Sequence record: MZ234013.1
Length of the DNA stretch: 64,000 nt
Reading direction: 5' to 3' (one strand)
From: Escherichia phage vB_EcoM-101112UKE3-1
The notes beneath the pieces were generated by a model. That model worked only from the letters and a program-made list of their open reading frames with translations, was not told where the DNA came from and searched no databases. A program made the position numbers and the translations under genes. Below are positions 44,402 to 45,555 of this stretch, one piece after another; position 1 is the first letter of the stretch, and each line of letters starts with the position of its first letter.

Positions 44402-44856
44402 TGGAATTTAAAGACTTTTCAACGGGTCTTTATGTAGCAGCTAAGTTTTCAGAATTAACACTTGACGCGCTGGAAGAACTCCAGCGCTCTTTACGTGTTC
44501 CTAATCCAGTTCCTAGAGAAAAAATTCATTCGACCATATGTTATTCGAGAGTAAACGTTCCATATGTTCCATCGAGTGGAAGTTTTGAAGTAGCTTCTTC
44601 TGGACATTTAGAAGTGTGGAAAACACAAGATGGATCGACTCTTGTACTTGTGTTAGATTCTGAATATCTGCGCTGTCGACACATGTATGCGCGGGCACTA
44701 GGTGCTACACACGATTTTGATGATTACACACCGCATATAACATTGTCTTATAATGTTGGGCCCTTATCATTTAGCGGTGATGTACAAATTCCGGTTGTAC
44801 TTGACCGTGAATACAAAGAGCCTCTTAAACTCGATTGGGCAGATGATTTAAAATAA
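44398..44856 (+). CDS. 57B: gp57B-like protein
   Basis: 152 aa, matches recalled T4 57B length; synteny. Confidence 0.65.
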
Positions 44857-44868
44857 TTTCACAAAGTT

Positions 44869-44898
44869 GTTTACATACTGATGAGGTAGTGATACTAT
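44869..44898 (+). promoter_or_regulatory. T4 early-type promoter with stem-loop (PeSL-like)
   Basis: gtttac -35, 18 nt spacer, TGaTACTAT extended -10; -10 sits in the loop of hairpin tgatgaggta/tacctcatca. Confidence 0.6.
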
Positions 44899-44929
44899 TA
44901 CCTCATCAAAATTAATTAGGAAAATAAAA

Positions 44930-45187
44930 ATGAAAACTTTCAAAGAGTTTGCTACAAAAACTACTATCACTGAATCTTCCCACGGTATGGAAGTAAAGCT
45001 TGGAATGGCTTTAGCTGAAGCTGAGCGTCTTTTCTCTCGTATTAAAGAACTTGCTGCTGCGGTCGATCCTTCATCTTTTAAAGGAGACCAAACTAAAGTT
45101 AAAGCACTTTTAGCATTATGCTCCGATGCAGGAGAAATTGCTAAAAATGGCTCTAAGATGAAGAAACGATTAGAAGATTTAAAATAA
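44930..45187 (+). CDS. internal-protein-like small protein with capsid-targeting-like N-terminus
   Basis: 85 aa; MKTFKEFATK...ITE resembles the T4 internal protein leader (MKTYQEFIAE) cleaved by gp21. Confidence 0.5.
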   Translation: MKTFKEFATKTTITESSHGMEVKLGMALAEAERLFSRIKELAAAVDPSSFKGDQTKVKALLALCSDAGEIAKNGSKMKKRLEDLK

Positions 45188-45199
45188 TTTCACAAAGTT

Positions 45200-45229
45200 G
45201 TTTACATAGGGTTTTAGTTGTGATACTAT
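45200..45229 (+). promoter_or_regulatory. T4 early-type promoter with stem-loop (PeSL-like)
   Basis: 32 nt identical to the 44869 copy, then a different stem (ataggg/ccctat) around the conserved gtgatactat loop. Confidence 0.6.
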
Positions 45230-45263
45230 TACCCTATCAAAACAAAACCAAATGGAAATCAAA

Positions 45264-45497
45264 ATGAAAACTTACCAAGAATTTATTGCTGAAACTGCTG
45301 ATGTAAAAGTTGAGTTTATTTACACTGGCAAGAAAGATAAAATGGGTGAAATGCCTCATGGAGTTCTTCGTGATGCATTAGATAATTTCGGTCAACTCGC
45401 CGCAGAAGATTACGGTGATAAAATTGTTGTTACTGGTCCTGCTGCAGTTATTGAAAAATGGGCAGCAGAAAATAAATCAATTTTTCGTAAAAAATAA
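45264..45497 (+). CDS. internal protein (IP) with canonical capsid targeting sequence
   Basis: Starts MKTYQEFIAE, the T4 IP leader; 77 aa from the ATG at 45264 (track ORF starts at an upstream ATG, 45252). Confidence 0.6.
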   Translation: MKTYQEFIAETADVKVEFIYTGKKDKMGEMPHGVLRDALDNFGQLAAEDYGDKIVVTGPAAVIEKWAAENKSIFRKK

Positions 45498-45527
45498 GTT
45501 TACTTTTAGATAGGGTAGTGATACTAT
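45498..45527 (+). promoter_or_regulatory. T4 early-type promoter with stem-loop (PeSL-like)
   Basis: gtttac, 18 nt, tgatactat inside hairpin gatagggtag/ctaccctatc. Confidence 0.55.
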
Positions 45528-45555
45528 TACCCTATCTACTACTGAGGAGAATAAA

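Follow-up and report, generated by a model that had tools for sequence, protein, structure and literature searches.

In the 64,000 nucleotide stretch of Escherichia phage vB_EcoM-101112UKE3-1 analysed here (sequence record MZ234013.1; referred to below as the window, the coordinates of which are used throughout unless a relative is named), the interval between the genes 57B and trna.4 is best explained as the hypervariable internal protein (IP) locus of a T-even phage, built from cassettes that each comprise a promoter combined with a stem-loop, a Shine-Dalgarno (SD) sequence and an IP gene bearing a conserved leader; we put the probability of this reading at roughly 0.85. A first-pass annotation of the window had arrived at much the same interpretation, which is supported by the analysis and matches the published description of the T-even IP locus. 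Two conserved genes, 57B on the left and trna.4 on the right, anchor the locus, the parts of which lie in the following order.

44398 to 44856, + strand: 57B, annotated as such in T4 and relatives; matches the Pfam family Acb1 (anti-CBASS), PF23474, with an E value of 2.7e-60.
44841 to 44911, + strand: module P1, with the -35 hexamer GTTTAC at 44869-44874, the TGn and -10 core GTGATACTAT at 44889-44898 and hairpin arms at 44879-44888 and 44899-44908.
44930 to 45187, + strand: ip5, predicted to encode an internal head protein of 85 aa (phrog_3499, E value 1e-49; ip5 in the RefSeq annotation).
45172 to 45242, + strand: module P2, with the -35 hexamer at 45200-45205 and the core GTGATACTAT at 45220-45229; the 33 nt at its 5' end are those of P1.
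45264 to 45497, + strand: ip6, predicted to encode an internal virion protein of 77 aa (phrog_8111, E value 1e-52; ip6 in the RefSeq annotation).
45491 to 45545, + strand: module P3, with the -35 hexamer at 45498-45503, overlapping the ip6 stop codon, the core at 45518-45527 and arms at 45507-45517 and 45528-45538.
45556 to 45741, + strand: trna.4, encoding a small predicted membrane protein (phrog_1692) and annotated in T4 and relatives.

The prediction that ip5 and ip6 are internal protein genes is supported by their PHROG families, by their RefSeq annotation and by comparison of their leaders, as the first-pass annotation had proposed for the two genes following 57B. Both leaders have the capsid-targeting sequence, in which residues 4 and 7 are aromatic, as well as the gp21 motif (L/I)-x-E, each as defined in PMC9026906, and both genes lie in one of the two loci (57B-tRNA and e-denV) in which IP genes are found. 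The leader of ip6, MKTYQEFIAE, agrees with the start of T4 IPII and IPIII at every residue (10/10) and has I-A-E at residues 8-10; that of ip5, MKTFKEFATKTTITE, starts with MKTFKEF, like T4 IPI, and has I-T-E at residues 13-15, the T4 IPI counterpart being at residues 17-19. The leader codons of the two genes (44922-44965 and 45256-45299) are 77% identical, and constitute a second, independent patch of homology in addition to the modules. Sequence searches of Pfam and PDB with Ip5 and Ip6 gave no match, and a literature search for virion proteomics of the two proteins returned nothing relevant.

A third IP-like gene (48374-48847), annotated as hypothetical (phrog_2280), lies downstream of the cluster of tRNAs and stable RNAs. 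Its 157 aa product starts with MKSYTQFLNEAVLNE and has L-N-E at residues 8-10 and again at 13-15. It is not preceded by an early promoter module; upstream of it are a GC-rich hairpin with a T-run (around 48300-48328) and a TATAAATA late promoter motif from around 48330.

The modules preceding ip5, ip6 and trna.4 are around 70 nt long, each consisting of an A/T-rich tract, GTTTAC, a further 14 nt and GTGATACTAT, with a stem-loop formed around the -10. They make up a family of 71 nt direct repeats in three copies (44841-44911, 45172-45242 and 45470-45540), and the motif GTTTAC-N14-GTGATACTAT has four matches in the window (at 44869, 45200, 45498 and 63935), each of them on the + strand, where shuffled sequence would give an expectation of 0.01, in agreement with the earlier claim that such modules stand before both IP genes. 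Copies 1 and 2 have 33 consecutive bases in common, GATTTAAAATAATTTCACAAAGTTGTTTACATA; the identity had been correctly noted on first inspection, with a length of 32 nt. The repeat between cassettes reaches into the last codons of the upstream gene, which is why both 57B and ip5 end in DLK* (44841-44856 and 45172-45187), and the A/T-rich tract, UP-like in P1, holds the stop codon of the preceding gene, that of 57B in the case of P1. A scan for sigma-70 promoters found TTTACA, a 17 nt spacer and a -10 of TACTAT preceded by TG, which fits the PST/T4 consensus TTTACW-N17-TAYWAT of PMC4122927, and in the GenBank record MZ726795 these sites carry annotations both as T4 early promoter and as terminator. 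Each module can be regarded from these features as a predicted strong early promoter of the T4 type, with an UP-like A/T tract, GTTTAC, TGn and TACTAT.

In P1, the sequence of which is identical to that of the T4 57B/ipI module, the stem is a perfect 10 bp helix, TGATGAGGTA/TACCTCATCA, closing a loop of GTGATACTAT; in P3, TAGATAGGGTA/TACCCTATCTA forms a perfect stem of 11 bp around the same loop, and the trna.4 SD, GAGGAG, then follows. P2 is composed of ATAGGGT/ACCCTAT (45206-45212 and 45231-45237) with an inner TAGT/ACTA and an outer TTGTTT/AAACAA helix, and its fold leaves the -10 partly paired; hence the proposal that the -10 sits in the hairpin loop holds for the first and third copies, but not entirely for the second. 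The 5' arm fills the promoter spacer, and the 3' arm begins immediately downstream of the -10 and extends to around +4, such that the arms occupy precisely the parts of the promoter with no fixed sequence. The SD sequences following the three IP-locus modules lie 8-20 nt past the stem and are not sequestered.

For the five modules singled out by the first-pass annotation, the predicted RNA folds are more stable than the shuffled controls against which it had suggested they be judged: minimum free energies range from -17.4 to -22.8 kcal/mol, with z scores of -4.4 to -6.7 relative to dinucleotide shuffles, and none of 200 shuffles was as stable. The individual values are -17.4 kcal/mol (z -4.8) for P1, -18.1 (z -4.8) for P2 and -18.5 (z -4.9) for P3. 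Folding the five with DNA parameters gave z scores of -3.0 to -6.6, and the hairpins were still the predicted structure when 150 nt of context was included on each side.

The arms of these modules covary. All viral contigs containing GTTTAC-N14-GTGATACTAT were retrieved, a search that is blind to the arms, yielding around 90 distinct modules, many of which have strong hairpins with unrelated stems. With the register fixed so that the loop is the core, 11 of 91 modules form all ten of ten pairs and the remainder are centred on four to five, whilst ten of ten pairs is reached in only 0.4% of cross-pairings between modules; the paired modules belong to at least five unrelated arm families. In an ungapped alignment of 90 modules, 49% of cells are paired in register 0, as against 36-41% in slid registers, and the covariation score is 0.27 as against 0.15-0.18, neither value being reached by any of 500 shuffles. 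Stems that differ yet keep their pairing, as claimed for the window, are therefore found both there and in the wider collection.

A single hairpin register for all modules was rejected: a loop consisting of GTGATACTAT fits only 12 of 91, and other modules pair the -10 itself, with a loop of GTGA or GTGAT, or reach the SD. As no single register fits, a register-free, strand-symmetric search for inverted repeats, in which G·T and A·C are treated alike, was used to compare the two kinds of mismatch. This identified 53 distinct stems spanning the -10 in the window and in loci L001-L153. On the promoter-sense strand, the non-Watson-Crick positions of transition type comprise 37 G·T or T·G and 9 A·C or C·A, giving p values of 4e-5 against an expectation of 0.5 and of 0.0015 against a composition-based expectation of 0.58, both of which are optimistic because the stems are not phylogenetically independent. 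The G·T excess indicates that it is the sense strand which folds, RNA being the simplest form in which it would do so. It also bears on the suggestion that the compensatory changes imply selection: pairing is indeed kept, but compensatory differences between paralogous copies are not in themselves proof, since template-switch mutation can make perfect palindromes, and a stronger case is made by the asymmetry of the G·T excess between strands.

The arms of the 53 stems were also found to differ in composition, the 5' arms being rich in G and T (222 G, 61 C) and the 3' arms in A and C; in 40 of 48 G·T or T·G stem pairs, the G is in the 5' arm.

Gains, losses and replacements of IP genes have their breakpoints inside the modules or the leader codons. 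This was observed by comparing the 57B-to-tRNA interval across T-even phages, using the window, T4 and 36 other 57B loci, 38 in all. In T4, where the equivalent locus is 57B-ipI-trna.4, homology to the window extends through 57B, P1 and the leader as far as 44964 and then ends; the body of ip5 has no T4 counterpart and ip6 is absent. P2 (45182-45240) is a 97% match to the second module of T4, and homology resumes at 45518, inside the P3 core. The T4 ipI/trna.4 module reads as a fusion in which P2 supplies the 5' part and P3 the 3' part. One relative (L146) has the order 57B-P2-ip6-P3-trna.4, which is the window without ip5, and the junction falls in the 33 nt repeat; in another (L145), the leader and P3 are separated by a different IP gene, and homology returns at 45498. 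Hybrid modules, in which the 5' half of P2 or P3 is joined to the 3' half of P1, occur in two further loci, as follows.

L139, 4472-4530 and 4805-4863: hybrid modules, IMG/VR contig 3300045988_118042.
L130, 5177-5240: hybrid module, IMG/VR contig 2706796299_000001.

The arms of these hybrids are mismatched, with folding energies of -14 and -7 kcal/mol compared to -17 to -20, and from their sequences they look like recent crossovers in the shared -10 core. L130 also has a short duplication, GATACTATTACCTCATCAAGATACTATTACCTC. The modular shuffling of IP genes that had been envisaged from the window alone is borne out by the breakpoints relative to T4, L146, L145 and L139. Across the 38 loci, mature IP sequences fall into at least 17 families, and these occur in more than 20 arrangements, which, with the families lettered, include E-A (the window), B-E-A, B-A, A-D-B, C-B and B-C, and the 36 related contigs carry between zero and five IP genes per locus. 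The modules are intergenic and lie on both sides of the variable open reading frames of this hyperplastic locus.

Elements of the same kind are found elsewhere in the window. Between 44.8 and 64 kb there are 11 good matches to the early promoter on the + strand, seven of which have a stem of -17 kcal/mol or lower. Those lying outside the 57B-trna.4 interval include the following.

53043 to 53101, + strand: a single hybrid promoter-hairpin module between e (lysozyme) and denV.
55663 to 55717, + strand: promoter-hairpin upstream of regB, the SD of which, AAGAGGAG, falls within the 3' arm.
60681 to 60722, + strand: module upstream of mobD.2, with a 15 bp stem and a -10 of ATGATATAGT (-22.8 kcal/mol, z -6.7).
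63928 to 63985, + strand: module in the nrdC region, preceding nrdC.10, with the stem GGGTAGTAGT/ACTATTACCC (-18.7 kcal/mol, z -4.4).

The e/denV module marks the second IP locus (52548-53518), which is empty in the window: e is followed directly by denV, with no IP gene, as opposed to the T4 arrangement e-[module]-ipIII-[module]-ipII-[module]-denV. Its 5' part matches the T4 e/ipIII module, and the denV SD falls under its 3' arm. The nrdC-region module has a 3' half equal to that of P2; as in P2, its register is shifted so that the pairing takes in part of the -10, and the stem is extended by an outer TTGTTT/AAACAA helix. The modules at 55663, 60681 and 63936 are of the same class as those of the IP locus but are not IP-specific; the first-pass annotation had listed the two near 60680 and 63935 alongside the IP modules, and whilst they do belong to the class, they are situated in the mobD/nrdC region and not beside IP genes. 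A 3' arm that covers the SD defines a subclass containing the denV and regB modules, in which the T4 ipII/denV intergenic region (L153) is also listed. In RNA reading through such a module the SD would be hidden, and in promoter-proximal RNA it would be exposed.

With the start site placed at the usual distance of 7 nt after the -10, the 3' arm covers the expected start, and therefore a promoter's own transcript cannot form the hairpin, which would form only in RNA reading through from upstream. There, it would most likely act as an attenuator lacking a U-tract, or as a 3' end stabiliser, insulating each cassette. The module, of around 50-70 bp, and the leader of around 30 nt may together provide portable homology for the T4 recombination machinery, allowing IP genes, which encode injected anti-restriction proteins, to be swapped whilst leaving neighbouring genes undisturbed. 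We suggest tentatively, and at rather less than even odds, that the stem-loop is selected as an RNA structure in read-through transcripts, and that crossovers in the -10 core create mismatched hybrids, such as those of L139 and L130, in which compensatory changes subsequently restore the pairing. If this is the case, past exchanges would have left a molecular record in the variety of stems, and the genealogy of IP cassettes across the T-even phages could be followed by stem identity. On this reading, Ip5 and Ip6 would be candidate inhibitors of particular GmrSD-type restriction enzymes.

Several observations weigh against these interpretations. The stems of the strand bias test share ancestry to an extent that its p values do not reflect, and termination by the stems, which no U-tract follows, is unproven. 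Terminator and promoter assays in the literature used the GC-rich promoter early stem-loops (PeSLs) of phages RB49 and phi1, relative to which the T-even elements have been called analogues, not homologues. Nor is the module required for IP diversity, since in many more distant relatives (e.g. L128 and L116) the IP genes directly follow one another, head to tail, uninterrupted by modules, and the existence of broken-stem hybrids (-7 kcal/mol) in apparently viable phages implies that the hairpin is dispensable, at least transiently.

Other explanations of the hairpins have to be set against this evidence. That they are canonical Rho-independent terminators ending monocistronic IP transcripts is suggested by their label in GenBank record MZ726795, and a phi1 PeSL stem-loop did cut lacZ expression about as much as rrnB T1; however, the GenBank labels are software predictions (WebGeSTer, TransTermHP), and intrinsic terminators have a G+C-rich hairpin directly followed by a U-run, whereas the three IP-locus stems have few G-C pairs and lead into AAAATTAATT, CAAAACAAAA and CTACTACTGA, none of which contains a U-run. 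A consensus terminator scan of 44300-46600 found no terminator-like site. As stems without a U-tract are not canonical terminators, we reject that assignment, and consider it unlikely that the elements serve in this way. Action at the level of DNA, whereby a cruciform or single-strand hairpin stalls replication forks or is cut (for example by T4 endonuclease VII) and so starts the recombination that moves cassettes, would account for breakpoints mapping in or beside the hairpins and for the DNA-parameter folds also surpassing their shuffles, and PMC2839356 includes the speculation, from the authors of the PeSL work, that the stem might be a target of a recombination protein. Yet a DNA palindrome should tolerate G·T and A·C equally, each being the other on the opposite strand, which is difficult to reconcile with the ratio of 37:9; AT-rich stems of 10-11 bp with 10 nt loops extrude poorly as cruciforms; and the inferred crossovers lie in the shared core or the 33 nt repeat, as plain homologous exchange predicts. 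We therefore regard a DNA-level role as doubtful.

It is improbable, too, that the palindromes are not under selection and arose as side effects of template-switch (quasipalindrome) mutation or of modules recombining repeatedly with one another. The arms do sit exactly at unconstrained promoter positions, a single templated event, as in T4 quasipalindrome mutagenesis, can yield double changes that appear compensatory, and about half of the early promoters with the same core have no hairpin. Against this, the distribution of own pairs is sharply bimodal, with the 11 fully paired modules standing apart from a background of four to five pairs; the same register recurs in at least five unrelated stem families; copying of one arm from the other would not be expected to produce a G·T excess on one strand; and stems of -17 kcal/mol or lower accompany seven of the 11 early promoters between 44.8 and 64 kb. 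The centring of the palindrome on the -10 region could also suggest an operator for a dimeric DNA-binding regulator of the early promoter, but arms that are wholly different between copies in one genome (TGATGAGGTA, TAGATAGGGTA and AGTTGACAAGATTA) are incompatible with recognition by one sequence-specific protein; this candidate was rejected, and its probability is very remote.

The window itself can be assigned from its sequence matches to a Tequatrovirus, that is, a T4-like coliphage. Many Tequatrovirus genomes, including vB_EcoM_ESCO58 and fFiEco06, share 99% identity with the region 44100-46500, which is matched by 824 phage records, 255 of which cover at least 80% of it. The gene order in annotated relatives is gene 1 (dNMP kinase), 57A, 57B, ip5, ip6, trna.4, trna.3, trna.2 and the tRNA cluster. 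Given the match of 57B to Acb1, an anti-CBASS nuclease, the IP cassettes adjoin another anti-defence gene. Within the tRNA cluster, between tRNA-Tyr and tRNA-Arg, is a segB-like gene for a GIY-YIG homing endonuclease (47196-47903), which is absent from this position in the close relative fFiEco06.

Hairpins that sequester the ribosome binding site are a familiar feature of T4, as in genes e, 49 and I-TevI, where the promoter lies inside the hairpin and the 5' arm is missing only from transcripts that begin there. The denV (53048) and regB (55663) modules resemble these in having 3' arms that cover the SD, whereas the three IP-locus modules leave the SD free, and the promoters of the classical cases are late ones.

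The closest precedent is the set of elements flanking the IP locus of T-even phages reported by Repoila et al. in 1994 (EMBO J 13:4181). As described in PMC2839356 and PMC4122927, these share with the window the locus 57B-ipI-tRNA, a conserved leader on variable open reading frames, a flank of around 70 bp with a T4 early promoter and an overlapping inverted repeat, and the suggestion that recombination shuffles the genes and that they play a part in host range. Nothing essential differs, the window phage having ip5 and ip6 cassettes in place of ipI. According to Arbiol 2010 (PMC2839356), the T-even elements are based on T4 early promoters and have weaker, AT-rich stem-loops; Comeau 2014 (PMC4122927) repeats the description and supplies the PST/T4 consensus TTTACW-N17-TAYWAT.

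Later work generalised the 1994 description under the name of PeSLs. Those of RB49/phi1, PST/T4 and nt-1/KVP40 are similarly composites of promoter and stem-loop, found between genes in hyperplastic regions and tied to insertions, deletions and replacements; a subclass with the stem over the -10 has been described, and G-T pairs in the stems have been noted. Those of RB49 and phi1 differ in that their sigma-70 promoters are close to consensus and their stems, which have been shown to terminate, are GC-rich (Gn/Cn), promoter and terminator activity having been measured in phi1, and mini-circles between neighbouring elements were detected by inverse PCR in RB49 and phi1 only (PMC2839356). The T-even IP elements are AT-richer, with stems of variable size, and were termed analogues by the PeSL authors (PMC2839356); the figure legend for PST places the stems just upstream of the promoter, whereas those of the window modules span the -10. 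A further parallel, drawn by the PeSL authors themselves in PMC2839356, is with integron cassettes and attC sites: in both, small promoter-adjacent cassettes are swapped at a hotspot, and the junctions are imperfect inverted repeats in which structure is kept more than sequence. Unlike integrons, the IP locus has no known integrase and no attI, each cassette carries its own promoter, and exchange is attributed to general homologous recombination.

T4 Ip1, Ip2 and Ip3 each, as shown for these three only, block a different GmrSD type IV restriction enzyme (PMC12373910); the same 2025 study cites Repoila 1994 for the leader and for at least 10 IP types. The IP loci are an anti-defence hotspot, with the cassettes as the proposed vehicle for swapping injected inhibitors and changing host range, and the combined signature of module and leader has some practical value as a reliable finder of uncharacterised putative injected anti-defence proteins, such as Ip5, Ip6 and the 157 aa protein encoded at 48374. 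As the system is published and near-identical relatives are annotated, the first-pass annotation amounts to a correct, independent rediscovery. Promoter-hairpin IP cassettes are already known, and the window is another example of an idea around 30 years old, to which the G·U bias of the sense strand, the lack of any U-tract and the explicit hybrid modules and breakpoint maps are small additions.

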